Below are positions 1,136-64,000 of a stretch of DNA of 64,000 nt, piece after piece; positions within the stretch are counted from its first letter, which is position 1; each line of letters begins with the position of its first letter. Below the pieces are notes generated by a model. The model was not told where the DNA came from and did no database searches. It saw only the letters and a list, made by a program, of their open reading frames with translations. Source of the DNA: a virus; the IMG/VR virus record IMGVR_UViG_3300023179_008905, positions 12,131 to 76,130 of that record; one strand, given 5' to 3'. A program made the translations under genes and the position numbers.

Positions 1136-2047
1136 ATGGCCGATATAACAGTTTCCCAGCTTACTAGAGGACTGCCTCCGGTAAATGCTTTTATCCCTTT
1201 TTCTAATGGAACGACTACGCTTGCTGTTGCTCCTTCTGGGTTATTGGTTAATGCGGGTAAAGTTGGTATTAATACAGCAACACCAACGTCAGAATTAACA
1301 CTTTCAAGATCTGTACAGCTTTCGGCTGATTCTATAGAGCTTAATGTTAGAAGCGGTATTACTGAAGGTAATTTTGATGGAATAAAATTTACGCAAACCG
1401 CAGGTACTTATAATGAGCTCGCAGCTATAAGATGCAAGTATTTTAATAACGGGCAAACGGCATTAGAACTTTCAACAAGAGAAAATAATGGTGTAAACCT
1501 TAAGGTTGAGTCAATGCTTACTCTGGACCGTAATAACGGTAATGTCTTAAATCATGGTTTAATATTAAGTGGTAGCAGTTTATATAATCAAGGAAATAGT
1601 GCTTTTCCTGATAGTGGTGTTACAAGTCTAAATGTTGCTAGAGGGTGGACATATGGCTACAACGATGTTACTGGAAACCTATCTTTTTACACTCATATAC
1701 TATTACCTCCTGATTTTAATCAAAACAACTATCAAATGTTTTTATTAGAAATAAAAGGATATAATTTTAGAAGCGCTACAGCTCAACTTATAAATTTAAT
1801 TGTAGGTGGTTACGTAACCCCAGTATCAAACGGTGGACCAATAAGAAATGTTTCCGCCTGGCAGGCATTAGGTGATTTTAATCCAACAGCATATTATAGC
1901 AGTACATATAATAGAGGGGTTGTGAGGTTTTACTTATCAAATGCTTACTATGCTTCTTTTGTAGTTAATTCCATATGTGTAGGTAATGGTAGAATTATTA
2001 AGCCTGGGGAACTACAAATCATTTATAGTTCCAGTGCAACATTATAA
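1136..2047 (+). CDS. MADVTIS-family virion fibre/adhesin protein
   Basis: N-terminus MADITVSQLTRGLP...IPFSNGTTT, fibre repeat VGINTATP, TAAATA late box at 1125-1130. Confidence 0.7.
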   Translation: MADITVSQLTRGLPPVNAFIPFSNGTTTLAVAPSGLLVNAGKVGINTATPTSELTLSRSVQLSADSIELNVRSGITEGNFDGIKFTQTAGTYNELAAIRCKYFNNGQTALELSTRENNGVNLKVESMLTLDRNNGNVLNHGLILSGSSLYNQGNSAFPDSGVTSLNVARGWTYGYNDVTGNLSFYTHILLPPDFNQNNYQMFLLEIKGYNFRSATAQLINLIVGGYVTPVSNGGPIRNVSAWQALGDFNPTAYYSSTYNRGVVRFYLSNAYYASFVVNSICVGNGRIIKPGELQIIYSSSATL

Positions 2048-2058
2048 TAAATAACTAT

Positions 2059-2508
2059 ATGAGCTTTAACTCTAAGTTGTCCGAATATTTAAAATTGTTT
2101 ACTGAGCAAGGTGAAGAACAGCAGGTTGATGCTACAGCTCCTGCACCTCAGCAAGCACCACCTCCTACACCACCCACAGCTCAAAAAGAAGAGCCCTCTG
2201 CATTACCACCAGAAGGTTATGTTGATATGGTTAGAATGTTAGCGAAAGCTTTAGTCATGAATATACCTGCAGGTACTATTGATGCTTTGTTTACAAAACC
2301 TATTAATCAAGAATCTGCAGTTGAAGCAAGAGAAGCATTGCAACAGTCTATAGCTTCTAACGAAAATTATGAAGATAACCCTCAGCGTATAACTAACCCC
2401 CATGTTAAAAAGTTTGTTGATTCTATAAATGAAAATAACTTTATGGCAAAATACAAAGAGATTCTTAATATAATGAAGCGTTATAGCAACGATCCCAATC
2501 TCAAATGA
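2059..2508 (+). CDS. hypothetical late protein, possible internal head protein
   Basis: TAAATA at 2048-2053; leader MSFNSKLSEYLKLFTEQ followed by a Pro-rich linker. Confidence 0.65.
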   Translation: MSFNSKLSEYLKLFTEQGEEQQVDATAPAPQQAPPPTPPTAQKEEPSALPPEGYVDMVRMLAKALVMNIPAGTIDALFTKPINQESAVEAREALQQSIASNENYEDNPQRITNPHVKKFVDSINENNFMAKYKEILNIMKRYSNDPNLK

Positions 2509-2509
2509 T

Positions 2510-3739
2510 ATGCATAAGAAAAAGCTTAAAAAGCCTTACAAGTCTCTTGATGAGATTTATCTAAAAGAATCTTTTGCTAAGCCTGTACCAGCTCTACCTA
2601 GACAAACAATTTTTAACGAAGCTCCAGAAGATAAAACAATAGATGTTTATGCACAAGTAGATGACGGCGGTAGGCCAAAGCTATTAGGTGCAGTTGATAG
2701 AAAAGGTCTTACAAAAATTACTAATATAGTAAGTTCTGATAAAAGCGGAACCGTATTTAAGGACCTTATGAGTGTATGTAATTTACAAGGATTAGAAAAT
2801 TTTATATATCCTATTTTTGAAAAATATAATATTAATTACGATGAAGTAAAAAGATTATTAGTTGATGGTAAAAATTCTAAAGCTATGCAATTTCCTATCT
2901 CTAATAAAATTGTTGGAAAATCGGGTAGCTTTGAGCTTTGGAATACTTTAAAACCGGTTATAAAAGCTGTTTTAGTAGAACAAGAAGAAAATGATGCTGT
3001 AAATTTATTTTCTGAATTATTTAATTTTGAACCCCCTAAGGGTACAGTAGCTACCGGTAAAGGCGAATTAGTTATAATTCTTTTTAGTGACGGTAAAAAA
3101 GTGAAGTATGAAAAAGATGATGTATCAAAAGGTGATATTGTTTTATCAGATGGTCGACGACTTGAACTAAAGGTAGGTCAAGGAAGATTAGCTTCTGCAA
3201 GAAGTAGAGGATTTGAAAAATTGCGACAATCTGTAGAACAGCTAGTACACAAACGAATGACAGGAGAAAATTTAACGTTTGATGAGCTAAAAAATGTTAA
3301 TTTAGCTTTATCTAAAGAAGAAGATATTAATTTTTCATTACAATTTATTAATAAAAATACTGATCCAAATGTTTTAGAAAGTTTAATTTGGGCTCCGAGT
3401 TTATTAGGTTATGGTGGAAAGGGGTTTGAATATCTTTTAATTATGAGTAATAAGGATAGAGCAGCGGGTAAATTTATTCTTAGTTATTATGATATAAAAG
3501 ATAAGAATATTATTATTGATGCATTGCTAAATAAAAATCTTAGTGTTTATGCAGACAATGAAGGTTTAACAATAACTTCTGGCTTAAGACCTACTGGTAA
3601 AAGTGCCTATAAGCAGTATAGACCTGCTCCAGTTAAAAAATCTGCTAAAGCAGTAAACCCTTCTTTTACCCCACCGGTAAGACCACCCGCAATACCAGCT
3701 CAACCGACAACACAGGAACAACCTAATGCTAACGTTTAA
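2510..3739 (+). CDS. putative PD-(D/E)xK nuclease-fold protein
   Basis: GKGELVI...KGDIVLSDGRRLELKVGQGRL matches the E...GD...ExK restriction-endonuclease pattern; Pro-rich C-terminal tail. Confidence 0.5.
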   Translation: MHKKKLKKPYKSLDEIYLKESFAKPVPALPRQTIFNEAPEDKTIDVYAQVDDGGRPKLLGAVDRKGLTKITNIVSSDKSGTVFKDLMSVCNLQGLENFIYPIFEKYNINYDEVKRLLVDGKNSKAMQFPISNKIVGKSGSFELWNTLKPVIKAVLVEQEENDAVNLFSELFNFEPPKGTVATGKGELVIILFSDGKKVKYEKDDVSKGDIVLSDGRRLELKVGQGRLASARSRGFEKLRQSVEQLVHKRMTGENLTFDELKNVNLALSKEEDINFSLQFINKNTDPNVLESLIWAPSLLGYGGKGFEYLLIMSNKDRAAGKFILSYYDIKDKNIIIDALLNKNLSVYADNEGLTITSGLRPTGKSAYKQYRPAPVKKSAKAVNPSFTPPVRPPAIPAQPTTQEQPNANV

Positions 3740-4913
3740 GCAATTTCTTCTTGAAGGTGGAGTAGCTGGTCATATGGCTCATCCTTTCGATTTACCTAAT
3801 GTAAATACGGGTAAAGATCTTATTAATATTTTTAATAAAATAGTTAATAGTTTAAAAAAGAAGCCTTCTACAGTAAAGATAGACGGTGTTAACGCTTCTA
3901 TAAAGTTAATAACAAATGCCGAGGGTAATAAAGAGTTTGCTATGGATAGAGGCTCTAGCAAGCCTGAAGACGTGGAAGGTGTTACAATATCAAGACTAAC
4001 TGCAAGGTTTCCAGCAGGTCATGGTATGATAGAAACAGGAAAGACTGTTCTTAATATTTTTAATACAGCTATTCCTAGCATAGAACCTGAACTAAAAAAA
4101 CTTAAAATGTGGAATAATCCTAAAATTCTTTTTAATATGGAATTCGTAAAAGGTGCAACCAATGTTATTGGATATGCTAATAACTTCTTAGCAATACATG
4201 GTTTAAATGAAATTATAGAAGTAAAAAGCCCTGTTCGTGGAAGCGTAAGAAGAGCTTCACGTGAAATATCTTATGACAAAAAAGCATTACTTTCTTTAAT
4301 TCAAAAAGTAGACCCTATTGCTAAGAAGTCCGGTTTTGATGTTGAGCATGAATTTACTGTAGAATTAAAAGATGTAAATTTTAATGATGTTTTAAATCAA
4401 AAATTTACCGTTAGCTATGATTCTAAAACTTTTGATACTAGGCCTTTAAAAGATTGGCTTTTAAAAGCTAAGAATCCTAGGGCTGAAAAAATTAAAACAG
4501 CTTCTGGCAAAACAATAAGTGCAATGAGCTTAGAAAACTATAAGAATGTAATTTCTGGTATTCCTATGATACAGTATATAGGTAATAATAAAAAGGTAAT
4601 AGAAAAAGCTATCAACGGTGCTTTATTTTATCATGCAACATTACTAATGGGTGATAAGATTAAGCAAGCTTCGACATCAAAGCTTGGCTCTCTTCAAACA
4701 CAAGAAGGCATTGTTGTAAGAGATTCTACAGTATCTTCTAACCCAGTTAAAATAACAGGAAGCTTTATCACAGGAAAAGAGGCTGGTAAATTTGCCAAAC
4801 GCGGTGAAAATGAAGAAAATCAAAGACAAATGTCTAATCAAAATTATATGGTAAATCCTGAATTTGGAAAAGAAGGTGCACGATTAACGCAAACACCAGG
4901 AATGTCTATATGA
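3726..4913 (+). CDS. ligase-like covalent nucleotidyltransferase-fold protein (DUF6267-like)
   Basis: TVKIDGVN (motif I KxDG), NMEF (III), QEGIVVRD (IV), VKITG (V); N-terminal GHMAHPFD. Confidence 0.55.
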   Translation: MLTFKQFLLEGGVAGHMAHPFDLPNVNTGKDLINIFNKIVNSLKKKPSTVKIDGVNASIKLITNAEGNKEFAMDRGSSKPEDVEGVTISRLTARFPAGHGMIETGKTVLNIFNTAIPSIEPELKKLKMWNNPKILFNMEFVKGATNVIGYANNFLAIHGLNEIIEVKSPVRGSVRRASREISYDKKALLSLIQKVDPIAKKSGFDVEHEFTVELKDVNFNDVLNQKFTVSYDSKTFDTRPLKDWLLKAKNPRAEKIKTASGKTISAMSLENYKNVISGIPMIQYIGNNKKVIEKAINGALFYHATLLMGDKIKQASTSKLGSLQTQEGIVVRDSTVSSNPVKITGSFITGKEAGKFAKRGENEENQRQMSNQNYMVNPEFGKEGARLTQTPGMSI

Positions 4914-5560
4914 AATTCGATAAATTAGTAAATGAAATTTTAATGCCACAAAAAAATAATTTAATCGTTATATTTCCTGGGCGCTTTCAACCTTTTCATG
5001 TAGGTCATAAACATTTATTTGATATGGCTAAAAAACAGTTTCCGGGGGCTGATTTTTTTATAGCTACAGCAGATGAAATAGCTAAAAAAGAAGACCCATC
5101 TCGCTATCCTTTTAATTTTAAAGAAAAAAAAGAAATTATTAAAGCAACGGGTATTCCTGAAAAAGAAATAGCCCAGGTTAAAATGCCTTATAAGCCTTTA
5201 GAAATTTTAAAAAATTATGATCCTAATGTTGCAAAAGTAGTTTATCTTGTAGGTAAAAAAGATATGGAATCAGATCCTCGTTTTGCATTTGGAATAACTA
5301 AGAAAGGAACGCCTACTTATTTTCAACCGTTTGCTGATTTACAATCTATGCAACCATTTAAAGAGCAAGGTGGTCACGGTTATATCTATGCTCCGGCTAC
5401 AATTGAATTTAACCTAGGTAAAAAGAAGATAACAAGTGCAACCGAACTTAGAAATATGTATAAAGCATCTAATGAAGCTGTAAGAAAACAAATCGTGCAA
5501 GCTGTTATTGGAAAATTTGACCCTAAAATTTATAACCTATTTAATTCTAAATTAAGTTAA
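4910..5560 (+). CDS. HIGH-family cytidylyl/adenylyltransferase
   Basis: FPGRFQPFHVGH (HxGH) motif, VGKKD, and C-terminal SATELR. Confidence 0.8.
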   Translation: MKFDKLVNEILMPQKNNLIVIFPGRFQPFHVGHKHLFDMAKKQFPGADFFIATADEIAKKEDPSRYPFNFKEKKEIIKATGIPEKEIAQVKMPYKPLEILKNYDPNVAKVVYLVGKKDMESDPRFAFGITKKGTPTYFQPFADLQSMQPFKEQGGHGYIYAPATIEFNLGKKKITSATELRNMYKASNEAVRKQIVQAVIGKFDPKIYNLFNSKLS

Positions 5561-7935: not shown

Positions 7936-8589
7936 TTAGATCAATTTTCTATTTTGTGCAAATTCAATAAACTTATAAAACTCGTTTCTTGAGTTATCCT
8001 TATCATCTAAGAAAGCACCAGACATTCTAGCTGTACGCATGGTAGAATCATGTCTAATACCACGATTCGAACAACAGGTATGAGCTGCTTCAATCATTAC
8101 AGCTACACCCTTATTCTTTAAGCATACCTCATCAATATATTTGTGAATTTGCATTGTTAGGTTTTCTTGAACTTGAGGGCGACGGGCAAACCAATCAACA
8201 ATACGATTTAGCTTACTTAAACCAATAACCTTACCGTCTTTAGCAGGAATATAAGCAACATGCGCAAACCCCATAAAGGGCGCATGATGATGAGAGCAAA
8301 GAGATGTTAATTTAATATTTGTTTGTGCGACTATACCGTCATACTTATCTACATTATCGAATGCAGTAACTTTAGGAGGAGTGCTATAACAGCCCCATGC
8401 AAAATCTTCAACAAAAGCCTTTGCTACCCGGTGTGGTGTATTATCACTATTTGGATCGTTTCTCCAATCATAACCTAAAGCATCCATGTACGCTTCGTAC
8501 GCTTTAGCTGCTCGTTCTATAATTTGTTCTCTTTCTTCTTGAGTATGAGGGTGATTGTGATTTGCAAAAGCTAATTTCTTTTTAAACAT
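7936..8589 (-). CDS. folE: GTP cyclohydrolase I
   Basis: NTPHRVAK, SLCSHHHAPF, IGLSKLNRIV, RRPQVQE, HTCCSNRG. Confidence 0.95.
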   Translation of the reverse strand: MFKKKLAFANHNHPHTQEEREQIIERAAKAYEAYMDALGYDWRNDPNSDNTPHRVAKAFVEDFAWGCYSTPPKVTAFDNVDKYDGIVAQTNIKLTSLCSHHHAPFMGFAHVAYIPAKDGKVIGLSKLNRIVDWFARRPQVQENLTMQIHKYIDEVCLKNKGVAVMIEAAHTCCSNRGIRHDSTMRTARMSGAFLDDKDNSRNEFYKFIEFAQNRKLI

Positions 8590-8624: not shown

Positions 8625-8645
8625 CATAAATATTATTGTATATCT

Positions 8646-9524
8646 ATGGCTGATACAACCATTAAACAATTGACAACAGTAATACCTAAAGGTGTAGGGC
8701 TAATACCATTATCACAAGATAATGTTACAGTTAATACTCTTGCTTCTAGTATTACTGCAAGTGCTATGCCTTCTAGTGTAAGATATAGTGTTGAATATTT
8801 AGTGGTGGGAGGAGGCGGTGGAGGGGGGCAAGATTATGCCGGTGGTGGGGGTGCAGGTGGCTATGTTGAAGGAAATATGTTTTTAAATGTTGGTGAAAGA
8901 TATCAAGTTATAGTGGGCTTAGGGGGGAGAAAAGATTTACAACATTATTATAATGAAGATGGTACTGATTCTGTTTTTGGCCCTGTAGTAGCTTTTGGTG
9001 GTGGTGCAGGTATGTCATATCAAAACAGACGACAAGCTAATAATGGTGGTTCAGGCGGTGGGTGTGGCTATCAGTATGCTTATATCGGTAGAGGCTTTCC
9101 GGGTCAAGGTAATAATGGTATAATAGGAGGTAATATAGGTTCAACAGCAGGTGGTGGTGGTGGTGGAGCTGGTGGAGTTCCTCTAACAATAACACCCTAT
9201 ATTGGCGGGGTAGGTAAGTCTTCATCAATTACGGGAACAAGTACTTTGTATGCAAGTGGTGGTTCACATATAGGTGATTTAGGTACTGTTAAAGCGTCTG
9301 ACCCTACACCAAACACTGGTCACGGGGGTAATAGTGCTTATGGATCGTGGACAGGCGATGGAACAGCGGCTAACGGAGCAACTGGTATTGTTGTTATAGC
9401 TTATGCTGGCGCACAGCGCGGTACTGCTTACAATTATAATAATGTTATAATACCAGCTGATACCTCTTCTAGAGCAGGCTATACTGTGCATAAATTTACT
9501 CAAGGAGGCTATTACATAGCTTAG
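8646..9524 (+). CDS. MADVTIS-family fibre protein with glycine-rich C-terminal domain
   Basis: MADTTIKQLT...LIPLSQDNVT anchor, then VEYLVVGGGGGGG...GGGGAGG...GIVVIAY...TVHKFT; ATG 8646 preferred over 8610. Confidence 0.7.
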   Translation: MADTTIKQLTTVIPKGVGLIPLSQDNVTVNTLASSITASAMPSSVRYSVEYLVVGGGGGGGQDYAGGGGAGGYVEGNMFLNVGERYQVIVGLGGRKDLQHYYNEDGTDSVFGPVVAFGGGAGMSYQNRRQANNGGSGGGCGYQYAYIGRGFPGQGNNGIIGGNIGSTAGGGGGGAGGVPLTITPYIGGVGKSSSITGTSTLYASGGSHIGDLGTVKASDPTPNTGHGGNSAYGSWTGDGTAANGATGIVVIAYAGAQRGTAYNYNNVIIPADTSSRAGYTVHKFTQGGYYIA

Positions 9525-9528: not shown

Positions 9529-10368
9529 ATGGCAGACGTAACAATATCTAATTTAACTTATGGGATTCCTTCTACAGGGTCCTTTATACCTTATACTGAT
9601 AATGGTGTTACGCTTAAAGTTTCACCCTCTGGTATATATGCTCAAAAAAATAGTTTATTAATGGTAGGTGCATCGGGGATTGCACCTGATGTATTTCCTG
9701 AAAATCAGACTGCTGCAATTGCACCGCTGACAAACTATAATGCAATTTTTCGAGGAGGGTGGTTAGTAAACATTACAGATAAAAATACAACTTGGGGTGA
9801 TTCTGCAGCAAGAATAGGTGTTTTAAAAGTTGGAGCGGGTGATAGCTGGTGGTTTTCACATAATGCAGACGGTTCTTGTGGAATACATCAAAGTAGACAA
9901 GGTGATAGAATACATATACTTTCTGGTGGTGAAGTGACTAAACCCTACCAGCCATTTTTATATGCAAGTAGAGCAGGTAAAGGTGATTATACATACTCAA
10001 ATGCTACTGTTGTAGCAAATACAGCTACAATACCTTTTAATACTATCATAAAGCAAGTTGGAGACAATTACAATACGTCAACTGGATTATACACTGCACC
10101 TGTGAATGGTGTTTATTTAATAGAAGCGGGTATAAATTTTGGCGGTGGGAAAGTAAATCAAATGTGGCCTTTAATAGATGGGGTAAGGCAACCTACATTC
10201 GGGGGAGGACAGGACTATTCTAGTTTTAATATTTTATTCGGTACAACAATTTTATATTTAAATAAAAATCAAACTGTGGGTATAAGAGTTTACAGTGGTC
10301 AAACAAGTAATATTACTATTTATGAAAATGAATCACATACATTTTTAAAGATAGCTTTATTAGGATAA
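9529..10368 (+). CDS. MADVTIS-family fibre protein with C1q/TNF-like head
   Basis: MADVTISNLT anchor; IPFNTII...YNTSTGLYTAPVNGVYLI...LYLNKNQTV C1q signature. Confidence 0.8.
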   Translation: MADVTISNLTYGIPSTGSFIPYTDNGVTLKVSPSGIYAQKNSLLMVGASGIAPDVFPENQTAAIAPLTNYNAIFRGGWLVNITDKNTTWGDSAARIGVLKVGAGDSWWFSHNADGSCGIHQSRQGDRIHILSGGEVTKPYQPFLYASRAGKGDYTYSNATVVANTATIPFNTIIKQVGDNYNTSTGLYTAPVNGVYLIEAGINFGGGKVNQMWPLIDGVRQPTFGGGQDYSSFNILFGTTILYLNKNQTVGIRVYSGQTSNITIYENESHTFLKIALLG

Positions 10369-10378: not shown

Positions 10379-10813
10379 ATGGAATATACCAACGTAATAA
10401 AAGAGAGTCTAAAGAAAACAGCTCTTAAGAGAATAAGAGTAAAAGTGGATCCTGCTTTGGTTACTGCTGGGGTTGATTTTTCTAAAGTAGACGGTTATGA
10501 AGGTTATGTATTAGAAGAATGTATGGGTAGGTTAAGAGTATTAGTTCTTTCTCCAGATATGCCTATTTGTGATTTACCAGAAGAAATGTTAGAAATAGTT
10601 GCAGATAGTATCGATAGCGATGTATTTGAAGAATATAAAGCTTTTGTAATGCACAGGCTTATTAAAGATGGTAAAACTATTAATGACCCTTTATTAGAGC
10701 AGATAAGATGTAGTGCTGATATAAATAGTATAGAAGTTTTAATCAATCAGGCCGGTTATACCGGGGATAGGTTGGCAGAACTTTATAGAGATTTTATAAC
10801 TAATGAAAACTAA
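10379..10813 (+). CDS. hypothetical late protein
   Basis: TAAATA box upstream; leader MEYTNVIKES. Confidence 0.7.
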   Translation: MEYTNVIKESLKKTALKRIRVKVDPALVTAGVDFSKVDGYEGYVLEECMGRLRVLVLSPDMPICDLPEEMLEIVADSIDSDVFEEYKAFVMHRLIKDGKTINDPLLEQIRCSADINSIEVLINQAGYTGDRLAELYRDFITNEN

Positions 10814-11906: not shown

Positions 11907-12620
11907 ATGAGATATAAAAGTACTAAGATCTTAGAATTAGGTAGTTGTGCATTTAGACAATGGAGAGCTGTACATAGTCATTGTAAGTTTATTCATGGCT
12001 ATAGATTAGTTGCTAAGTTTTGGTTTAGTTGTGATTCTTTAGATGATAAGAATTGGGTAGTAGATTTTGGAGGGTTAGATGAACTTAAGAAAATTTTACA
12101 AAAACAATTTGATCATACATTATGTGTTTCAGAAGATGATCCTTTGTTAGAAGGATTTAAATCATTACATACTGCTGGTGGTTGTGATTTAAGAATTATG
12201 CCTAAGGGAGTAGGTATTGAAAGGACAGCTGAATGGTGTTTAAATGTTTCTGATGCGCATGTAAGACAGTTAACAAATAATCGTTGTTGGGTTGAAAAAG
12301 TTGAAGTATGGGAACATGAAAAAAATTCAGCTATAGCAATTGCAGAAAATATTAATCATAATCATGTTAATTTGAGCAATGCATTTAATGTTACAAATAA
12401 TGTTACAACTGGTAATTCTGAAACTGTTGCAACAACATTGCAACCACCTATTAATCAGGTAAGAACGTTTTTAGACGACGTACAGCAAGAAACCGGTGTT
12501 AATGTTGCTAATGTTTTAAAACAAGTTCCTCAGCAGCAAGTACCGAGACCAGCTAATGTAGGTAATAAGACGTCTTCAGGTTTTTCGAATTTATTTGGCG
12601 GTACAAGCTGGGGAATGTAA
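11907..12620 (+). CDS. queD: 6-carboxytetrahydropterin synthase with low-complexity C-terminal extension
   Basis: CAFRQWRA.HSHCKFIHGY, WVVDFGGL, FDHT, VEVWEHEKN. Confidence 0.9.
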   Translation: MRYKSTKILELGSCAFRQWRAVHSHCKFIHGYRLVAKFWFSCDSLDDKNWVVDFGGLDELKKILQKQFDHTLCVSEDDPLLEGFKSLHTAGGCDLRIMPKGVGIERTAEWCLNVSDAHVRQLTNNRCWVEKVEVWEHEKNSAIAIAENINHNHVNLSNAFNVTNNVTTGNSETVATTLQPPINQVRTFLDDVQQETGVNVANVLKQVPQQQVPRPANVGNKTSSGFSNLFGGTSWGM

Positions 12621-13358
12621 TTAGATTTTTGGCTTAATTGTTGCTATTACTTTTACTATAAATTTAAGTAATTTACTTCTAGTAATATCATCTTCTGTAA
12701 AATGAAAAACATGTATTCCGTGATCCTTACTATCTTGTGAATCGAAACCACCCATAATATTTTTAAATCCGGATTTTTGAATATCTGATTGCAAAGAATC
12801 TCCTATAACAAACAATTTACAATTTTTTCCAAACCTAGTTAAAATCGTAACTAATTCACTATGCTCTAAGTTTTGTGCTTCATCAACTATTACAACACTG
12901 TTTGCAAAAGTTGCACCTCTCAAGAAATTAACAGGCGTACATTTTAAGTATTCATTTTCAAATAACATATTTGTTATTTGTTTACCTACTAATTCATCAC
13001 ATTTTTCTATTAATGGAATACTCCATGGCTTAAACTTATCGTCTACCTCACCAGGTAAGCTTCCTAGTTTACGTGTAGCAGATTCTACTATACTCCTTAT
13101 ATAGATTATCTCATCTATCTTTTTTTCCTTTAACATAGACAAAGCAACATATGTTGCACAGTATGTTTTCGAAGAACCAGCAGGCCCGTCACAGAATATA
13201 ATATGGGTATCGTCTTGAAAAGCCTTGTCTACAAAAGCTTTATGATGTTCATTAAAATGAAATTTCTGCTCTACTTTAAAATTCAGAAAAATATCTGATT
13301 TTATAAGCTTATTATCTTCGCGAGCAGCTTTTTTTAGCTGTCTGTCCTTCTTAGACAT
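12621..13358 (-). CDS. phoH: PhoH-family ATPase
   Basis: GPAGSSKT, LGSLPG, FLRGATF, VIVDEAQN, LTRFG, GDSLQSD. Confidence 0.95.
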   Translation of the reverse strand: MSKKDRQLKKAAREDNKLIKSDIFLNFKVEQKFHFNEHHKAFVDKAFQDDTHIIFCDGPAGSSKTYCATYVALSMLKEKKIDEIIYIRSIVESATRKLGSLPGEVDDKFKPWSIPLIEKCDELVGKQITNMLFENEYLKCTPVNFLRGATFANSVVIVDEAQNLEHSELVTILTRFGKNCKLFVIGDSLQSDIQKSGFKNIMGGFDSQDSKDHGIHVFHFTEDDITRSKLLKFIVKVIATIKPKI

Positions 13359-13374
13359 CTGTAATTATTTATTC

Positions 13375-13402
13375 TTGAATAGTAGCAGATATGTAATATA
13401 AT
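13375..13402 (+). promoter_or_regulatory. sigma70-like promoter TTGAAT-N16-TATAAT for queE
   Basis: Intergenic, back-to-back with the TAAATA box serving phoH. Confidence 0.6.
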
Positions 13403-13412
13403 ATAAAAATTA

Positions 13413-14156
13413 ATGAGTGATTCGTATATTTTTTTAAGTGACGATAAGTTATTTTATACTCTAGAAGGTGAAGGTGAGTATGTAGGATATCCTTCTGTTT
13501 TTATGCGTTTATCAATGTGTAATTTAACGTGTAAAGGATTTGCTTCATCTGATTCACCTCACGGTTGCGATAGTTTTGTCAGCTGGTCAGTAAAAAACAG
13601 AATGACGTTTGATGAGGTGTTTGAATATATGGCACAAAATAGTTATAACTGCCATTTAAAAGATGGTGCTATATGGAAAATTACTGGTGGCGAACCACTT
13701 ATTCAACAAAAAACATTATTAGAGCTTGTTGATCAATTTATTTTCCGCTTTGGGTTTGTACCGAGAATAGACTTTGAAACAAATGCTACAATTATACCTG
13801 ACCATCAGTGGGTAGATTGGAAAGCAACATTTACAACTTCACCTAAGCTTTCAAACAACGGAGATCCGATTGAAAAGAGATATAAGCCTGAAGTATTAAA
13901 ATGGCATGTAAAACATAATTCGGGCTTTAAATTTGTTATTAATAATGAAAACGATTTTAATGAAGTTTTAGAAAAATATATACTTGAGCCGAATATTAAA
14001 GTTCCCCGGGAAAGAGTATGGTTAATGCCTTGTTGTGGTAGTAGAGAAGAGCATATTGAAAAGGCGTCTGTTATTGCCGAGTTATGTAAAAAACATAAGC
14101 TTAAATTTAGTCCAAGATTACAACTTGTTATTTGGAATAAAGCTCTTAAAGTATAA
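13413..14156 (+). CDS. queE: 7-carboxy-7-deazaguanine synthase (radical SAM)
   Basis: FYTLEGEG...SVFMRLSMCNLTC(x11)CDS, ITGGEPL, ETNAT, SPKL, SPRLQ. Confidence 0.9.
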   Translation: MSDSYIFLSDDKLFYTLEGEGEYVGYPSVFMRLSMCNLTCKGFASSDSPHGCDSFVSWSVKNRMTFDEVFEYMAQNSYNCHLKDGAIWKITGGEPLIQQKTLLELVDQFIFRFGFVPRIDFETNATIIPDHQWVDWKATFTTSPKLSNNGDPIEKRYKPEVLKWHVKHNSGFKFVINNENDFNEVLEKYILEPNIKVPRERVWLMPCCGSREEHIEKASVIAELCKKHKLKFSPRLQLVIWNKALKV

Positions 14157-15116: not shown

Positions 15117-15875
15117 TTAACTATTACCGCCAGTTAGAGCAGTTACATTTACCCATAGAGTAGAATTATACAAGTACAGGAATCTCCAATAAGCCCTTAC
15201 TGGGGCACCGCCAATCGGTATTACATATCCAAGATCTACATTAAAGTTTAAATTGTTACCGCTTTTTATAATACTATCGTAAGGAATATAAGGTACGTAA
15301 AGAGATGATGTACCGAGCGTTATAGTAAATAAATCTGGTCTCTTAACAGCATTAATTGTAATATCAGAAAAATTATAAAAAAAGTTTGCAATAGTTATGA
15401 GACTACTCTTGTTAGTCGGTTGAATGTCTGTATAACCCCAAAATTCTACTACACGCTTGTAGAGCTGATTTTGATAAGCAGTTAAATTAGGAATTAAAGT
15501 TTGTGAAATATAAACGTAATCAGGAGATGCATTTTCTACATAATTAGCACTTGTAATTAAACCGCCGCTAAAGGTGAATCTATTATAATAATCATCTTGA
15601 CCGGTAAATCCTAGCTCACTTTCTGTAACGTAAAGAGGTGAAGAAATGACCGAACTTGCAGAAACGGTATCAAACCTTACATATTCACCTGTAAGGCTTC
15701 CGGGTAAAACTGTTTCACCATTAGGATTAGTTTTAACGACATTTAAATTTTCAAACGTTATAGTCTGGGTACCATTTTCTGTTTGAAGAATAAAAAGATC
15801 GCTACCTAAAACTTCTTGAGATTTAGGTAAACTATTAATATTAACAAAATTACTATTGGATGTATTAATTGCCAT
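15117..15875 (-). CDS. putative virion structural/fibre protein
   Basis: TATAAATA upstream; N-terminal VNINSLP...DLFILQTENGTQTI anchor-like motif; S/T/N-rich beta composition. Confidence 0.55.
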   Translation of the reverse strand: MAINTSNSNFVNINSLPKSQEVLGSDLFILQTENGTQTITFENLNVVKTNPNGETVLPGSLTGEYVRFDTVSASSVISSPLYVTESELGFTGQDDYYNRFTFSGGLITSANYVENASPDYVYISQTLIPNLTAYQNQLYKRVVEFWGYTDIQPTNKSSLITIANFFYNFSDITINAVKRPDLFTITLGTSSLYVPYIPYDSIIKSGNNLNFNVDLGYVIPIGGAPVRAYWRFLYLYNSTLWVNVTALTGGNS

Positions 15876-15907: not shown

Positions 15908-16723
15908 ATGGAGAAAATAGGTGTTGGTATTATAACATGTAATCGACCACGGTTTTTTGTAAAATGCTTTAGATCTATACCTCTAGTAGATAATATTATC
16001 GTTGTTAATGATGGTGCGGATTTTGAGGATGTAAGTAAGCTGCAACAGGAAAAGTCTTTTTATTATGTTCATAATAAAACAAATATTGGTGTTGGTAGAT
16101 CAAAAAATATTGCTTTAAAATATTTATTAGAACAAGGCTGCACACATTTATTTCTTATAGAAGATGATATAGTAGTAAAAAATAAAGACGTATTTAATGT
16201 TTATATTAATGCTAGAAAAATAACCGGTTTACAGCATTTTAATTTTGGTTATCATGGTCCAGCTAATAGAAACAATATTTCTAAAGGTCAGCCGGTTCCC
16301 AGATTTATTATTGATTACGGTGATACAAAAATTGCTATAAATGCAAATAGCGTTGGCGCATTTTGTTATTACACCAAAGAGGCTCTCGAAGAAACGGGGT
16401 TATTAGATGAAAGTTATTTAAATGCTTTTGAACATGTAGATCATGACTACAGGCTTTTTAAAGCAGGATATTATACGCCATATTGGAATTTTGCTGACAT
16501 AGCTAATAGTTTAGAATATTTAGATGAATTAGAATGCTCTGAAAATAGTAGCTCTATTAGACCGAGATCAGATTGGCGTCAGAATATTGAGCGCGGATTA
16601 CAAATTTTTAAAAATAAGCATGGTTATACACCAGCATGGGAAAATAGAGTACCCGATTCTACAGAAGAAGAGGTAAAAAAAGTTTTAAAGACGATTTATA
16701 AAAAATATTCATTGAAAAAATAA
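15908..16723 (+). CDS. glycosyltransferase family 2
   Basis: IITCNRP, VVNDG, NIGVGRSKN, FLIEDD, GLLDE...EHVDH. Confidence 0.85.
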   Translation: MEKIGVGIITCNRPRFFVKCFRSIPLVDNIIVVNDGADFEDVSKLQQEKSFYYVHNKTNIGVGRSKNIALKYLLEQGCTHLFLIEDDIVVKNKDVFNVYINARKITGLQHFNFGYHGPANRNNISKGQPVPRFIIDYGDTKIAINANSVGAFCYYTKEALEETGLLDESYLNAFEHVDHDYRLFKAGYYTPYWNFADIANSLEYLDELECSENSSSIRPRSDWRQNIERGLQIFKNKHGYTPAWENRVPDSTEEEVKKVLKTIYKKYSLKK

Positions 16724-16739
16724 TGATGTAATATAAAAT
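16712..16739 (+). promoter_or_regulatory. sigma70-like promoter TTGAAA-N16-TAAAAT
   Basis: -10 ends 6 nt before GTG 16746. Confidence 0.55.
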
Positions 16740-16745
16740 AATCTT

Positions 16746-17183
16746 GTGCAAAGAAAGTACTTACCTACCTTTTCAGAATTAGTTGATAGACTTACAATAG
16801 TTTTACTTAAAAGTATTTTTATCCCTCAAAACAAATCTCAGTATAATCAGGAAATAAAAGATATTAAGCACGATATAGATCAAATAATTAATGATAAAAA
16901 TATTAAGCTAAATTCTGATATTATTAAATCAATTTGTATTATTATGCTTGCAAACCGATATATTTGGGAGAATGAAAGTAAATGTCGGTCTGGTGAATCA
17001 CAGGACTTATCTCTTCTTAAACTTACCCATTCAATTAACGGGGTAAGAAATACTGCAAAAAACATTTTAGCAAAAGAATTTAATGAAAGACAAGATCTTA
17101 AAATTGATTGCCTTGCTGCTGAACTTTTATCAGATTTTCAAAATTGGGATATTTTTAAAGATTATGAAGAAAAAACAAAATAA
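16746..17183 (+). CDS. helical hypothetical protein of glycan clusters (DUF6165/DUF4254-like)
   Basis: SELVDRLTI...ANRYIWENES...NGVRNTAKN pattern. Confidence 0.55.
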   Translation: MQRKYLPTFSELVDRLTIVLLKSIFIPQNKSQYNQEIKDIKHDIDQIINDKNIKLNSDIIKSICIIMLANRYIWENESKCRSGESQDLSLLKLTHSINGVRNTAKNILAKEFNERQDLKIDCLAAELLSDFQNWDIFKDYEEKTK

Positions 17184-18982: not shown

Positions 18983-19008
18983 AAATTATAGCTTCACATA
19001 TATAATAT

Positions 19009-20505: not shown

Positions 20506-20508
20506 TTT

Positions 20509-25129: not shown

Positions 25130-25134
25130 TCATT

Positions 25135-44319: not shown

Positions 44320-44324
44320 ACTAT

Positions 44325-44353
44325 AGTATAAATGACTTTTTATTATTAATCAA
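44325..44353 (-). promoter_or_regulatory. sigma70-like promoter TTGATT-N17-TATACT
   Basis: -10 ends 5 nt before ATG 44319. Confidence 0.6.
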
Positions 44354-44354
44354 G

Positions 44355-45670: not shown

Positions 45671-45671
45671 A

Positions 45672-59326: not shown

Positions 59327-59521
59327 ATGTCAAACATTAATCCTCTAACACTTCAAGAACACGTTGCAACCTTTACTGCCGAATACGAAAAGTTTTCTGG
59401 TGGTAATAATGCCGCAGGCACTCGTGCCCGTAAGGCTCTTCAGGAGGTAATTAAGTTTGCCCGTGAAGCTCGCAAGGGTGTTCAAGAAGAAAAGAATGCC
59501 CGCAAGGCTGCAAAGAAGTAA
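59327..59521 (+). CDS. histone H1-like Hc1-family nucleoid protein
   Basis: EYEKFSGGNNAAGTRARKALQEV.K.AREARKGVQEEKN; TTGCTT-N16-TAATTT-N6-ATG. Confidence 0.85.
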   Translation: MSNINPLTLQEHVATFTAEYEKFSGGNNAAGTRARKALQEVIKFAREARKGVQEEKNARKAAKK

Positions 59522-59529: not shown

Positions 59530-59859
59530 TTATTTCTTTAATCCAAGCTGTCGCTTTCGCTCATTACGGTGGACGGAAGCGATAGTTTGGATTATATCTG
59601 TTGCTCTCTGAAAGGTATCTACTGTTTTATAAATTGCGTCTACTATTTCGTAAGCTGCGTGAATAGCTTTTCTTTCTGTATTAATATCCTCTAGCGATAC
59701 TTTTTGTTCTTTTTTTTCTTCTTTCTTTTCTTGATTTTCTGCAGGAGCAGGAGGTCTTACTGGAGCTGTGCTTATTTGCTTAGCTTGAGTATTAACAGAT
59801 ACCGCAGGTACTCCCGGGCTTGTATATGCTTCATAGATAAGATGGCTATCTTTATTCAC
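59530..59859 (-). CDS. small late protein, possible internal head protein
   Basis: Leader MNKDSHLIYEAY, Pro-rich linker; TAAATA box upstream. Confidence 0.65.
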   Translation of the reverse strand: MNKDSHLIYEAYTSPGVPAVSVNTQAKQISTAPVRPPAPAENQEKKEEKKEQKVSLEDINTERKAIHAAYEIVDAIYKTVDTFQRATDIIQTIASVHRNERKRQLGLKK

Positions 59860-59896
59860 TACTAATATTTATGCTTTTATAGATTAAATAATTAGT

Positions 59897-60862
59897 ATGG
59901 CAGACGTAACAATATCTGGATTACAAAAACAAAATACACAGCCCACAGATGTACTACCCTTTAGTACCGGAGCCAATACTTATGCATGTGCCGTAACTTC
60001 TCTATTTGCAAATACTGACAAAATAGGAATAGGGCATAATAATCCTGCAGCATACAATAATACGCTTTCAATTAAAGGTAAGGATTCCACTACTTTTACA
60101 GGGACCCAACCTTTGGGATTAGGCGTACTAAACGGAGGAAATTATGATTTGGCAGGAATCGATTTTAAGAATTTAGCCGGTAATTCGCTTGCAGGTAGAA
60201 TCGGTGTAAGTGTTACTGGAGGCGGTGGTTATCTGTTATTTGGCACTTCCAATAATTATGCCACCGGAATAACAAATACTGCTCTAACTATTGACCCAAA
60301 TGGTAATGTTGGTGTGGGTATTGGAGTAGCTAATGCTGCAGCAAAGCTAGATGTTAATGGCTCAATCTTTACTAAGGGTTATAATCATATTGAATGTGCA
60401 CAGTTTGGACCTACCCAAGCATCAATTAATAATATATTAGCTAATGAAGCGGGATATTTTAATTTTGATACGACAACAAATACAGATAATGCAATGTTTA
60501 ATTCTAATACCAGCGTATTTGAGTTGGCAGGTACCGGTAACTACGGTATAAAAATACTTAAAACTGGCTATTTAAATATAAACTATTTTCAAGATGTAAT
60601 TACAGCTGCAAAAGCAGGGTTTTTTACAACAACACAAAATTACGTAGCTATGCTTGTGGGTGTTAATGGTATTACTAAAGCAAGACATTTAATTTCACAT
60701 ACAAATGGTATATGGGATGGCTTAATGGGTACATGTACCCTAAAAGTTAACGCTAACGATATCGTAACGTTCTATATTTATTGTGCAACACCGGCTAGTA
60801 TAAAAATTTCACAGTTAGACGCAGTTTTATGGTCTAATTATAATTTCATGTTCTGGAGCTAA
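59897..60862 (+). CDS. MADVTIS-family fibre protein with C1q/TNF-like head
   Basis: MADVTISGLQ...VLPFSTG anchor; GNVGVGIG...KLDVNG repeat; IKILKTGYLNI...LKVNANDIV. Confidence 0.75.
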   Translation: MADVTISGLQKQNTQPTDVLPFSTGANTYACAVTSLFANTDKIGIGHNNPAAYNNTLSIKGKDSTTFTGTQPLGLGVLNGGNYDLAGIDFKNLAGNSLAGRIGVSVTGGGGYLLFGTSNNYATGITNTALTIDPNGNVGVGIGVANAAAKLDVNGSIFTKGYNHIECAQFGPTQASINNILANEAGYFNFDTTTNTDNAMFNSNTSVFELAGTGNYGIKILKTGYLNINYFQDVITAAKAGFFTTTQNYVAMLVGVNGITKARHLISHTNGIWDGLMGTCTLKVNANDIVTFYIYCATPASIKISQLDAVLWSNYNFMFWS

Positions 60863-61017
60863 AAAAACTTCTTACGACGCTTTGTATTTTTATCTGACCG
60901 AGTTGCCCTAAAACTTTTATAACCGTGATCCTCTCTCATCTGCCGGGCGTGCTCTTTCGAATAACTAACCCAGGGATTACGACGATCAAAAGTTTGACGT
61001 GGTTTGCTTGTTCTCAA
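60859..61017 (-). CDS. 52-aa Arg/Lys-rich peptide (not in ORF track)
   Basis: TTG start overlapping the upstream TGA; MRTSKPRQTFDRRNPWVSYSKEHARQMREDHGYKSFRATRSDKNTKRRKKFF. Confidence 0.55.
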   Translation of the reverse strand: MRTSKPRQTFDRRNPWVSYSKEHARQMREDHGYKSFRATRSDKNTKRRKKFF

Positions 61018-61148
61018 GAACGCTTCTTACCCTTATCTGAACGCTGCTTACGGGCGTTAATACCATGATATTTGCGCAAAAATGCGGCGTGCGTCTTTTG
61101 TGTATACGCTCCACCCATTCTTATTACTCTGCTTTTTGTTTTGTACAT
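61014..61148 (-). CDS. 44-aa Arg/Lys-rich peptide (not in ORF track)
   Basis: MYKTKSRVIRMGGAYTQKTHAAFLRKYHGINARKQRSDKGKKRS; shares a motif with its neighbour. Confidence 0.6.
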   Translation of the reverse strand: MYKTKSRVIRMGGAYTQKTHAAFLRKYHGINARKQRSDKGKKRS

Positions 61149-61167
61149 TCCTATATAGTATAGGAAG

Positions 61168-61329
61168 CTAGTCCTTTTTAAACTGTTTTCTTACGAGTAA
61201 CTGCTTTTGCTGCTCTAAAACTTGCTGAACATATTGACACTGAGCCTGTCCGCCAAGCTTGGCAATAATATCCTCGCATTCTTTAAGAGTTAAGTGATTG
61301 ACCTTTTTCTTCTTCTTCTTTTCGGCCAT
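61168..61329 (-). CDS. 53-aa basic protein (not in ORF track)
   Basis: MAEKKKKKKVNHLTLKECEDIIAKLGGQAQCQYVQQVLEQQKQLLVRKQFKKD; ATG 5 nt after TAAATA. Confidence 0.6.
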   Translation of the reverse strand: MAEKKKKKKVNHLTLKECEDIIAKLGGQAQCQYVQQVLEQQKQLLVRKQFKKD

Positions 61330-61351: not shown

Positions 61352-61359
61352 TATAAATA
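61352..61359 (+). promoter_or_regulatory. T4-type late promoter TATAAATA
   Basis: Exact consensus, 5 nt before ATG 61365. Confidence 0.7.
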
Positions 61360-61364: not shown

Positions 61365-62243
61365 ATGGCCGACGTAACTATATCTAATCTAACAAAAGCT
61401 ACACCTGCAGGTAATAATATAATACCCTACACAACCGGTAGCAGCACACAAGGGACTCCTGTTTCGGCTTTATTTCAAAACACAAGGTTTGTTGGTATTA
61501 ACAATACTAATCCTACCTATAAGCTTCAAGTTACAACTAATAGTCAGGGAACTGATGGTATAGCTCTAAATTCTGTTATTAATAATATTGGTGTAGGGGC
61601 ATTGGAGATTAGAGCAAATAACTCACAGGGTGCAAATAACGGTATTACACAAGCAGGCGATCAGGGTATTATATTTAGTGCGGGAAATGTTAATACAGGA
61701 AGCTTTGTACTAGCACCTTGGAATAATCAAGCTGCGAGTGGTATGAGGATGGATTCTAACGGAAGAGTAGCAATTGGTAAGGTTACACCCTCAACTACCC
61801 TGGATGTTGAAGGCACTATAACTTGTACAAGCACAGTTACAAATGGAGTACGTACATTATTTTTTAGCGGTAATACTACCGGTAATAGTGAAATTGTTTT
61901 GCCCGATATATACCAATTTGGTAGTGCTCCGCTAAAAGCTACTATGGTGTTTGATCATTGGTATGCAAACGGCTATACAGCGATACGAGAGTGTTATATC
62001 AGTGTATCTGTATACCCTGACAAATACACGTTAAACGATTTAATAAACATAAACACAACTACCGTGGGAGCTTGGACTGTTACAAGAGTTGCAACGTACA
62101 CTGAGTCAGGGGTACCGGCCAGCGATAAAACTGTTATAAAGAAAACTGCTGGTAGCTACGGGGGGACCAGTACTTGGTGGGTAAAGCTTGAGGGTAACGC
62201 TACAAATTTTAATTTATATTCTTTAAAACCTAATCCTTTATAA
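61365..62243 (+). CDS. MADVTIS-family fibre protein
   Basis: MADVTISNLTKATP...IIPYTTG anchor; VGINNTNP.YKLQV and VAIGKVTPSTTLDVEG repeats. Confidence 0.75.
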   Translation: MADVTISNLTKATPAGNNIIPYTTGSSTQGTPVSALFQNTRFVGINNTNPTYKLQVTTNSQGTDGIALNSVINNIGVGALEIRANNSQGANNGITQAGDQGIIFSAGNVNTGSFVLAPWNNQAASGMRMDSNGRVAIGKVTPSTTLDVEGTITCTSTVTNGVRTLFFSGNTTGNSEIVLPDIYQFGSAPLKATMVFDHWYANGYTAIRECYISVSVYPDKYTLNDLININTTTVGAWTVTRVATYTESGVPASDKTVIKKTAGSYGGTSTWWVKLEGNATNFNLYSLKPNPL

Positions 62244-62247: not shown

Positions 62248-63027
62248 ATGGCAGATGTAACGATATCGCAATTAACTAGAGGTGCACCCCCAGGAAATGC
62301 ATTATTACCATATAGTACGGGCAGCAATACGTTGGGTGTTCCTGTATCTGCTGTATTACAGACCGCCGGTAATATAGGTATAAATGTAGCTAACCCTTCT
62401 AGAAAGCTAGAAGTAGGTGGTGTAATAAAAACAAACGACTGGTTTAACGTAAAATACCCCACATCTATTCACGAATATGCGCTAGGACCATTTTATACAT
62501 TTAATGATTTTCATATTACCCATACAACTGATAGCTTTGTAACTCATTCCTGTAGATTCACCATACTTACCTCTGGTAACGTAGGTGTCGGTACAACAAC
62601 TCCTAGAGCTGGGCTTGAAGTTAATAATGAATCATTCATACAAAATAATGTTTATATAAAAAGAGGAACGTTTTCAATTTTTAATATTAATAGAAGAATA
62701 AAATTAACTTTAAGTAATTATCATTATGTAAAGCTTAAGCTATATGCGATGAGATCTAATTCTGGGGATAGTATGGTGTGGTGGGAGGGTATTCTTAATA
62801 ATAATTTTGGTACAGCGTATACACAACCTATGTCACAGCGTACCGCCAGTGGCACTATAAGCTACACTCTAGCATCTATTAATGGAGGTCCACCTCCCAA
62901 TGAAAATGTAGTACCTTGTGTATGGAATTTTGATTTTAATAATACTCCAAGTAATGCATGGGGTCATTATGAAATAACAGGATCCACTAACTATATTCCG
63001 GCTACTGTTGATGTTACAACTTGGTAG
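62248..63027 (+). CDS. MADVTIS-family fibre protein
   Basis: MADVTISQLTRGAP...LLPYSTG anchor; IGINVANPSRKLEVGG and VGVGTTTPRAGLEV repeats. Confidence 0.75.
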   Translation: MADVTISQLTRGAPPGNALLPYSTGSNTLGVPVSAVLQTAGNIGINVANPSRKLEVGGVIKTNDWFNVKYPTSIHEYALGPFYTFNDFHITHTTDSFVTHSCRFTILTSGNVGVGTTTPRAGLEVNNESFIQNNVYIKRGTFSIFNINRRIKLTLSNYHYVKLKLYAMRSNSGDSMVWWEGILNNNFGTAYTQPMSQRTASGTISYTLASINGGPPPNENVVPCVWNFDFNNTPSNAWGHYEITGSTNYIPATVDVTTW

Positions 63028-63063
63028 AGCAAAATCATCATGGCATAAATTAAATAATATCAT

Positions 63064-63912
63064 ATGGCCGATGTAACGATATCTAATTTAACTAAAGGTA
63101 CGCCGACAGGAAATGCAATATTACCATACAGTGCTGGTTCAAATACACTAGCTGTAGCTACATCTGCTATATTTGAAAACGTATCCACGGGTATAGGTAT
63201 TAATTGTAAACCAGAATCTTCAGAGACAAAATTGTTTATTAGAAGTAGTTATCCAAATTCTTATTTATTTGGTTTATCGGGTAGTGGTAAATCCTCAGCA
63301 ATGTATCTCTTGGTAGATGTTGATAATAAAAGACAGACCTGTTTAACGGATAGTAATGGTGCAAGAACTTTAGTATTTGATAATAGTGTAGTAGGTCAAA
63401 CAAATACACAGTTTTGGAATAATAATACTGAAGCAATAAGAATAAATTCTTTAAATAATGTAGGTATAGGAACATCTACACCTGCAACAAAATTAGATGT
63501 AAACGGTGTAATTAAATCCCAACAAATTGCTTTTTGTGCTACCAATCTAGACGGTCCTTATTTTTATTTTCCAAGTATTATAACCTATAATACCGTAACT
63601 GTAAACCGGGGTAATGGATTAAATGCCTCTACCGGTAAATTTACTGCTCCGGTGGCAGGGTGTTATTATTTTGAGTTTACCGGTATAAAAGCTAGCGGTG
63701 GATACGATCCCACACAAGTTAATTTCTTTTTAAATGATGTTAATACCAGATACAGAAGCTACTCACCAGGTACCGGGCATACACCAATTGCAATGTCTGC
63801 TATATTTAATTTAAATGCAAACGATGTTGTTTATGTAAAGCTACACGATTATAGTACCGGGGCAATTAATTCTAATGAGGCAACCCAGTTTGTTGGTTAT
63901 CTAATAGGATAG
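63064..63912 (+). CDS. MADVTIS-family fibre protein with C1q-like head
   Basis: Anchor; VGIGTSTPATKLDVNG; IAFCA...NASTGKFTAPVAGCYYFEF...LNANDVVYV...FVGYLIG. Confidence 0.8.
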   Translation: MADVTISNLTKGTPTGNAILPYSAGSNTLAVATSAIFENVSTGIGINCKPESSETKLFIRSSYPNSYLFGLSGSGKSSAMYLLVDVDNKRQTCLTDSNGARTLVFDNSVVGQTNTQFWNNNTEAIRINSLNNVGIGTSTPATKLDVNGVIKSQQIAFCATNLDGPYFYFPSIITYNTVTVNRGNGLNASTGKFTAPVAGCYYFEFTGIKASGGYDPTQVNFFLNDVNTRYRSYSPGTGHTPIAMSAIFNLNANDVVYVKLHDYSTGAINSNEATQFVGYLIG

Positions 63913-63969
63913 GGATATCCTTTATTGAGCGTAGCTAAATTAGCACGGTTCAGATATTAAATAATTAAT

Positions 63970-64000
63970 ATGGCCGATGTAACAATATCTAATCTGGTTA
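63970..64000 (+). CDS. MADVTIS-family fibre protein (5' partial)
   Basis: TAAATA-N6-ATG then MADVTISNLV, runs off the window edge. Confidence 0.7.
   Translation, partial: MADVTISNLV

Follow-up and report, generated by a model that had tools for sequence, protein, structure and literature searches.

Candidate virion fibers with a shared 40-residue N-terminal module and exchangeable heads in an uncultured T4-like lake phage

A 64,000-nucleotide stretch of the virus record IMGVR_UViG_3300023179_008905 (positions 12,131 to 76,130; hereafter the window), which its sequence assigns to a divergent T4-like myovirus, an uncultured lake phage, carries eight open reading frames (ORFs), starting at 1136, 8646, 9529, 59897, 61365, 62248, 63064 and 63970 (hereafter genes 1–8), whose products begin with MAD[VIT]T[IV] and share an N-terminal module of about 40 amino acids (aa), the anchor. 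We think it probable that these eight genes encode short, late-made and probably homotrimeric fibers of the virion, built from three exchangeable modules. The anchor, predicted to be a small hairpin plus a helix, would most likely fix the fiber to a conserved virion protein. A short shaft, usually ending in a collar of the type NVGIGTxxPxxKLDVNG, is followed by a C-terminal, presumably receptor-binding head, which is C1q/TNF-like in three of the proteins, Gly_rich_2 in one, and beta-rich but unclassified in three. The genes behave as cassettes: they come and go in a small number of fixed positions along the conserved backbone, and their heads are reshuffled by recombination at the anchor/shaft and collar/head junctions. 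One phage lineage could thereby carry 8 to more than 15 different adhesins.

To define the family, we built a profile hidden Markov model (HMM) of the first 48 aa and searched with it all six reading frames of the complete contig, 76,130 bp long, from which the window comes. The seven complete genes were recovered with E-values of 4e-26 to 2e-21 and the next-best match had an E-value of only 0.027, so the family resemblance is not due to chance. This search found no extra anchor copy in the 12 kb of the contig that precede the window. The translations and the HMM thus confirm the proposal, made in a sequence-only reading of this DNA, that the eight genes share an N-terminus of about 40 aa. That reading also spoke of a single anchor, and here the picture is more graded. 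When 237 distinct anchors were compared, drawn from 150 cluster representatives and 30 IMG/VR loci as well as this window, the positions conserved in at least 92% of sequences are M1, A2, D3, T5, I6, L9, P14, P21, S23 and T28, giving the signature MADxTIxxL-x4-P-x6-PxSxG-x2-T. A common module is present in all eight genes, but only this sparse, ten-position signature is near-invariant, and pairwise anchor identity within this genome ranges from 29 to 68%, which leaves room for several docking sites. Two subtypes can be distinguished, one with LPYSTGSNTLGVPVSA in genes 5, 6 and 7 and one with IPFS..TL.VAPSG in genes 1 and 3; genes 2 and 4 carry odd anchors that fall outside both.

A shared 5' end could in principle be kept mainly as a patch of DNA homology for cassette recombination, with any role of the protein secondary. 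An independent Logan assembly of the lake sample matches the array sequence. In favor of such a patch, its contigs end or fork where cassettes meet, anchor sequence is reached from several contigs that are otherwise unrelated, and anchor/shaft mosaics exist. The codons, however, argue otherwise. When the 21 paralogue pairs were compared over their first 40 codons, 370 codons specified identical residues, and 206 of these (56%) differed in DNA. Nucleotide identity among the paralogue anchors is 42–73%, too low for homologous recombination to work efficiently inside one genome and of the kind that purifying selection on protein typically leaves. The anchor is thus conserved as protein and not as DNA, as the sequence-only reading had held, and we consider a primarily DNA-level role very improbable. 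Because the Logan contigs break at cassette borders, the order of cassettes rests on short overlaps and could partly reflect co-assembled strains.

Behind the anchor, the seven complete genes, which like the truncated eighth lie on the plus strand, vary in shaft, collar and head. Gene 1 (1136..2047, 303 aa) encodes an anchor at aa 1–40, a collar motif, VGINTATPTSELTL, at aa 43, and an unclassified beta-sandwich head at aa ~180–303. In gene 2 (8646..9524, 292 aa) the anchor is followed by a Gly_rich_2 head at aa 41–253, with no collar motif, and gene 3 (9529..10368, 279 aa), which begins 4 nt after gene 2, joins an anchor to a C1q head at aa 163–261. The main array opens with gene 4 (59897..60862, 321 aa), which has an atypical anchor, a glycine-rich shaft and a head that is C1q-like by profile only. 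Gene 5 (61365..62243, 292 aa) encodes an anchor, a collar motif at aa 43 and an unclassified head; gene 6 (62248..63027, 259 aa), which starts 4 nt after gene 5, has collar motifs at aa 43 and 112 and an unclassified head; and gene 7 (63064..63912, 282 aa) has an anchor, a shaft, a collar motif at aa 133 and a C1q head at aa 171–281. Gene 8 (63970..64000) is cut by the contig end after its first 10 codons, MADVTISNLV. The end of the window is also the end of the contig, and the earlier suggestion that the array continues past it is not something that can be read from the record.

The strict collar motif, VGIxTxxP..L.V (more generally [VI]G[IV][GN]..xP...L.V), which matches the tail-fiber PHROGs 9942 and 3269, occurs in four of the seven complete genes (1, 5, 6 and 7, twice in gene 6). 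It is degenerate in gene 4 and absent from genes 2 and 3, so that the earlier statement that most of the genes carry such repeats stands for these four. The head assignments of the same reading all stood. Pfam recognized C1q (PF00386, cut-off 23.7 bits) in gene 3 at 33.8 bits and in gene 7 at 55.3 bits, and Gly_rich_2 (PF21722, cut-off 24.3 bits) in gene 2 at 69.1 bits. Gene 4 had no Pfam match, and its head profile aligned with those of genes 3 and 7 (hhalign probabilities of 95% and 98%). The heads of genes 1, 5 and 6, described as unrecognized, matched neither Pfam nor, by hhalign, one another or the other heads. In fold searches, which covered heads only as the anchor is too small for them, the model of the gene 7 head matched predominantly TNF, C1q and BclA structures (Z 5.5–6.5), along with PRD1 P5 (1yq5, Z 5.5). 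The head of gene 1 was predicted by AlphaFold2 (AF2) as a confident beta-sandwich with a predicted local distance difference test score (pLDDT) of ~80; its matches were C-terminal domains of tailspikes and tail fibers together with generic beta-sandwiches at Z 6–7, within noise, and the best of them, at Z 7.1, stood among unrelated beta-sandwiches and pointed to no clear relative. For gene 6, the ESM Atlas gave fiber-type leads only (Mtd_N, PTL_trimer and Peptidase_S74 clusters). All AF2 predictions were of single chains. A head of the gene 1 type recurs on a 348-aa protein (P0160) behind a classical tail-fiber N-terminus (…LDTLNEISTALNND…), indicating that heads move between anchor families.

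The family extends well beyond this phage. Among 1.84 billion representatives, the anchor profile matched 326 clusters at 50% identity, 127 of them below an E-value of 1e-10, always at residue 1 of proteins of ~170–530 aa. In 148 family members, Pfam found C1q in 25, Peptidase_S74 in 5, BclA_C in 5 and Gly_rich_2 in 2, all of them fiber or adhesin domains of trimeric proteins. Peptidase_S74 is a self-cleaving chaperone of trimeric fibers. Five related virus records held 15, 9, 6, 4 and 3 anchor copies, and tandem arrays in relatives reach 9–12 genes. A search of 185,579 prokaryote genomes found no anchor, which marks the family as phage-only.

AF2, run with a 148-sequence alignment, predicted anchor residues 1–40 with pLDDT of 76–92 as a short helical turn, a hairpin (19–24/27–32) and a helix (33–37). 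A compact, self-contained fold of this kind might also serve to start folding or nucleate the trimer instead of docking, any attachment to the virion then being made by other parts of the protein. The module always precedes modules of trimeric type and does not co-vary with the genome, as this alternative would have it. Against it, C1q heads and S74 chaperones are established to trimerize from the C-terminus already, a module for self-association could drift freely, whereas the anchor is the only part conserved across the 326 clusters, and conserved N-termini with variable heads are attachment ends in other phages (PMC6872550). We regard a pure folding role as improbable.

The fiber genes are also marked by their upstream sequences. 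A box of the form xxTAAATA lies 5–13 nt 5' of the ATG in six of the eight: AATAAATA at 1123–1130 for gene 1, CATAAATA at 8625–8632 for gene 2, TATAAATA at 61352–61359 for gene 5, and ATTAAATA for genes 4 (59883–59890), 7 (63049–63056) and 8 (63956–63963). The exceptions are genes 3 and 6, in agreement with the earlier remark that most members have a late box of their own. For gene 2, the box lies 3' of an alternative ATG at 8610, which favors the start at 8646. The same box, 5–9 nt from the ATG, is found in front of the portal, gp13, gp21 and gp3 genes. Of the 39 other plus-strand ORFs, 9 have it. T4-type late genes have a TATAAATA-like -10 box common to virion genes, and because the box here is shared with portal, gp13, gp21 and gp3, we class the fiber genes, at the level of sequence, as late-type. 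As a separate observation, the box ends 5–9 nt before many starts (34850–34867, 36677–36694, 38801–38818, 1123–1130 and others), with no Shine-Dalgarno sequence between box and start codon, so that the mRNA leaders would be very short or absent.

Late expression and a shared N-terminal tag are also features of proteins packaged inside the phage head. The T-even internal-protein loci are polymorphic and encode otherwise unrelated late proteins with such a tag, and the present genes, with their common tag on unrelated late proteins in polymorphic loci, resemble them in this respect. If the anchor were a leader like the capsid-targeting sequence of the T4 internal proteins, a prohead-protease site would be expected, yet none of 42 anchor columns has a Glu consensus and no L/I-x-E-type site is present. 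The anchor, at 40 aa, is moreover predicted to be folded, and C1q, S74 and Gly-rich fiber or adhesin domains are implausible cargo for injection. Internal packaging is in our judgment the least credible of the readings considered here.

Comparison with related genomes revealed turnover of the cassettes. A 139.6-kb relative (G001) is collinear with this contig, and its backbone proteins are 55–98% identical, while the fiber slots differ. The slot of gene 1, between homologues of the genes at 559–1119 and 2059–2508, is empty in G001, as is the slot of genes 2 and 3, between the GTP cyclohydrolase gene and the gene at 10379–10813. Among closer relatives, gene 1 has positional orthologues in two loci (L013 and L019; 66–67% identity), and a protein identical to its product is encoded on a 103-kb contig; gene 2 has orthologues with 51% identity in L021 and L023. 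The main, hypervariable array begins after a conserved minus-strand gene at 59530..59859 (product MNKDSHLIYEA...), homologues of which bound the arrays of L047 and L048, and in relatives it ends 5' of a conserved gene pair, MTQTINGIEY/MSTNITGEVT. The relatives hold 4–10 cassettes there, of which none is orthologous to a cassette of the window. Slots are thus filled, empty or differently filled, and there is no fixed one-to-one set of orthologues in the relatives.

Exchange points could be mapped within individual genes. Gene 7 and its counterpart L042_6086 are 73–93% identical through aa ~148, the end of the NVGIGT...KLDV collar, and 13–28% identical beyond it. Gene 4 and L047_6116 are 40% identical in the anchor, 86% in the shaft and ~20% in the head; the shaft of gene 4 recurs, at 76% identity, in a further protein (P0014), the head of which shows 54% identity with the gene 7 head. 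Gene 3 and its L013 counterpart are 46–70% identical over aa 1–150 and divergent after aa ~150. The head-swap breakpoints fall directly 3' of the NVGIGTxxPxxKLDVNG collar motif. These exchange points, together with the empty and differently filled slots, establish that the heads are interchangeable, as had been proposed. The further proposal that this diversity arises without a diversity-generating retroelement (DGR) or an invertase agrees with the lack of any match to reverse transcriptase (PF00078) or resolvase (PF00239) on the 76-kb contig, a weak negative since the contig represents only ~35% of the genome.

A separate, single-cassette slot lies beside a neck gene. In six of nine related contigs, an anchored fiber gene starts 3–16 nt after gp14 (phrog_679); the gp14 locus concerned is at 13794–14519 of L036 (93794–94519 of G001), and the other contigs are L001, L005, L016, L025 and L027. 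While gp14 is 81–96% identical between these contigs, the fibers that follow it share only the anchor, and G001 has a second anchored fiber gene just upstream of gp14. No anchored fiber beside gp14 is visible in this window. The synteny would fit a location of the fibers on the neck or collar; however, the neighborhood of gp14 is a general host-recognition island in aquatic T4-like phages (PMC7029224), and the synteny therefore does not discriminate.

With regard to docking, our preferred explanation, that of virion fibers attached by their N-terminus, can take more than one form. In one, all paralogues would compete, through the one anchor, for a single class of many equivalent sites, for example on the neck or collar, the capsid surface or a baseplate ring, so that each virion would bear trimeric adhesins of 8 to more than 15 different kinds in a stochastic mosaic. 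This corresponds to the loading on one virion site, with a combinatorial repertoire, that the sequence-only reading had proposed, and we hold it to be unlikely. It would amount to a form of bet-hedging, played out in the single particle, in the recognition of hosts or particles, refreshed by exchange of cassettes in the population and not by DGRs or invertases. Alternatively, the fibers may have no common site, the anchor subtypes binding to separate partners or to one another in a hierarchical or branched arrangement with a fixed set per virion. The distinct subtypes, with their low pairwise identity in this genome, would suit such an arrangement, as would the positional orthologues of the dispersed genes 1 and 2, which core components would be expected to have, and the existence of one slot directly after gp14 with the main array elsewhere. 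Conversely, the ten positions conserved over anchors of all subtypes suggest one common contact, and no T4gp10-like branching domain was seen in the large tail proteins of G001. This arrangement, too, we rate as doubtful. The co-existence of several anchor subtypes in each genome is compatible with one tolerant site or with several sites.

A number of results weigh against docking of the anchor on the virion, or against the fiber interpretation more generally. There is no cultured relative among 50,697 deposited phage genomes, in which tblastn with the 48-aa anchor found no match, and presence in the virion is thus something we infer. Searches of the anchor against PHROGs, Pfam (E up to 10) and PDB sequences (E up to 10) returned chance-level matches only and so no relative of known function. 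No docking partner emerged from Pfam and PHROGs annotation of the tail-region proteins of G001, where sheath, tube, tape measure, baseplate wedge and hub, and gp14 were recognized. Anchor identity is 39% within genomes and 37% between them, a difference reached in 61 of 500 permutations, and shows no sign of co-adaptation to a genome-specific partner. The anchor model comes from one single-chain AF2 run, and some family members are very short (135–190 aa) and have no shaft. In addition, ten large proteins of the G001 tail region carry PKD, P_proprotein, SLT and NHL domains by Pfam, none of them of the T4gp10-like branching type; the large PKD, P-domain and NHL proteins indicate that the lineage has other, larger candidate tail fibers, and the small anchored fibers may be accessory.

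Several candidate relatives of the anchor were considered and set aside. By eye, it resembles the N-terminus of T4 fibritin (wac), for which we used the consensus LP[YF]VDGxP..GQ.RI.WIKNGE. The anchor HMM had no match at the wac N-terminus and no meaningful match to T4 gp10, gp11 or gp12. By hhalign, the comparison with T4 wac alone gave an E-value of 0.05, and that with a profile of 11 wac N-termini gave a probability of 1.5% and an E-value of 0.035 with only LPY..G aligned, leaving homology unsupported. A single-copy minus-strand gene at 15117–15875 encodes a protein of 252 aa in which the first 50 aa, MAINTSNSNYVNISNLPQTQE..DLLILQTENGTQTITF, are conserved, whereas the remainder evolves fast (~44% identity, compared with 70–90% for neighboring genes). 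Its pattern, V.IS.LP...LL..T..GT.T, is reminiscent of the anchor; kinship with the anchor was likewise unsupported (hhalign probability 3.7%).

The principle of a conserved attachment end, swappable heads and several receptor-binding proteins is already established. Klebsiella phages (KP32-type and RaK2/phiK64-1) and Ackermannviridae, with TSP1-4, have anchor/branch systems of receptor-binding proteins (PMC6872550, PMC11414711, PMC10253068). Like the present family, these combine a conserved N-terminal attachment part with exchangeable C-terminal specificity domains, comprise several receptor-binding proteins (per virion in those phages), and exchange heads horizontally. They differ in that each protein has its place in a hierarchy, docking is through T4gp10-like domains or short peptides, and the heads are mostly depolymerase beta-helices, whereas here 8 to more than 15 small paralogues share one 40-aa module and bear C1q, Gly-rich or small beta-sandwich heads. 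Metaviromic islands of marine pelagiphages contain C1q proteins that are candidate receptor-binding proteins with a conserved N-terminal end (Mizuno et al. 2014, PMC3909814), and pelagi- and cyanomyophages have a hypervariable host-recognition cluster beside gp14 that includes glycosyltransferases (PMC7029224). In both the pelagiphages and the present lineage, the phages are uncultured and aquatic, and lineages found together differ in their C1q heads but keep the N-terminal end; the pelagiphage reports, however, concern single C1q genes or the island in general, and not a multi-copy, multi-slot family with one N-terminal module.

More distant parallels exist outside these groups. The mosaic adhesive trimer (MAT) fibers of Bdellovibrio bacteriovorus form a set of about twenty trimeric paralogues with a common N-terminal part (PMC10769870) and likewise have modular shafts, diverse tips, NVGIGT-type collars and S74 chaperones; two MAT entries, 8ojn and 8ond, were among the fold-search matches of the gene 1 head. 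MAT fibers differ in being much longer, surface-exported fibers of a predatory bacterium, with an N-terminus unrelated to the anchor. T4 fibritin, which forms the neck whiskers, is trimeric, has a conserved virion-binding N-terminus and is encoded beside neck genes, as is the gp14-adjacent fiber gene, but it exists in one copy only, has a foldon and a shaft of the coiled-coil type, and shows no supported profile similarity to the anchor. In adenovirus fiber and the PRD1 P5 spike, a short N-terminal tail sits on the capsid vertex and is followed by a repeat shaft and a trimeric jelly-roll knob; these proteins are single-copy, belong to the vertex pentons of non-tailed capsids, and showed no sequence relation to the anchor. 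What differs here is that the anchor is undescribed, that each genome has it on 8 to more than 15 small paralogues, and that these are dispersed, in a genome of T4 type, over several fixed slots and one hypervariable array.

Of the biology of uncultured aquatic phages, the way they recognize hosts is understood least, and a 40-aa signature shared by hundreds of proteins now singles out candidate adhesins, along with their exchange points, throughout a lineage of large lake phages. Finding the partner of the anchor would make it possible to catalogue the heads, assign them to hosts and transfer them from one scaffold to another. The family would also show how a T4-type virion can carry many more kinds of fiber than are seen in the model phages.

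The window forms the final 64 kb of its contig, which has a G+C content of ~32% and a CheckV completeness of ~35%. Its gp23 gene (40683–42173) encodes a product only ~34% identical to cyanomyophage capsid proteins, portal, gp13, gp21 and sheath stabilizer genes lie within 34015–39490, and the contig is without the tail and baseplate genes of this phage. Among public runs, the only strong match was a lake-water metagenome. A possible hint to the host comes from a plus-strand gene at 59327–59521 for a 64-aa histone H1-like protein, Hc1 (PF07432, 59.2 bits), which adjoins the most variable locus, the main array, and is 92–100% identical between relatives. Hc1 is typical of Chlamydiota and Bacteroidota; together with the missing Shine-Dalgarno sequences and the G+C content of 32%, it makes Bacteroidota a candidate host group.

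Within the array, the 500-bp gap between the cassettes of genes 4 and 5 (60859–61329) holds three minus-strand ORFs of 52, 44 and 53 aa whose products are very basic, rich in Lys and Arg, and have no Pfam match. Sugar-metabolism genes, among them a cytidylyltransferase, a nucleotide-sugar epimerase, an aminotransferase and several glycosyltransferases, occupy 2510–5560 and 15908–30219, and the tail-fiber region of G001 (128743–132565) has further glycosyltransferase and methyltransferase genes; their products could glycosylate Ser/Thr-rich fibers or alter the host surface. Lastly, a queuosine/7-deazaguanine set (GTP cyclohydrolase, QueD, QueE and others) and PhoH, at 7936–8589, 11907–14156 and 42691–47050, are interleaved with the dispersed fiber genes.

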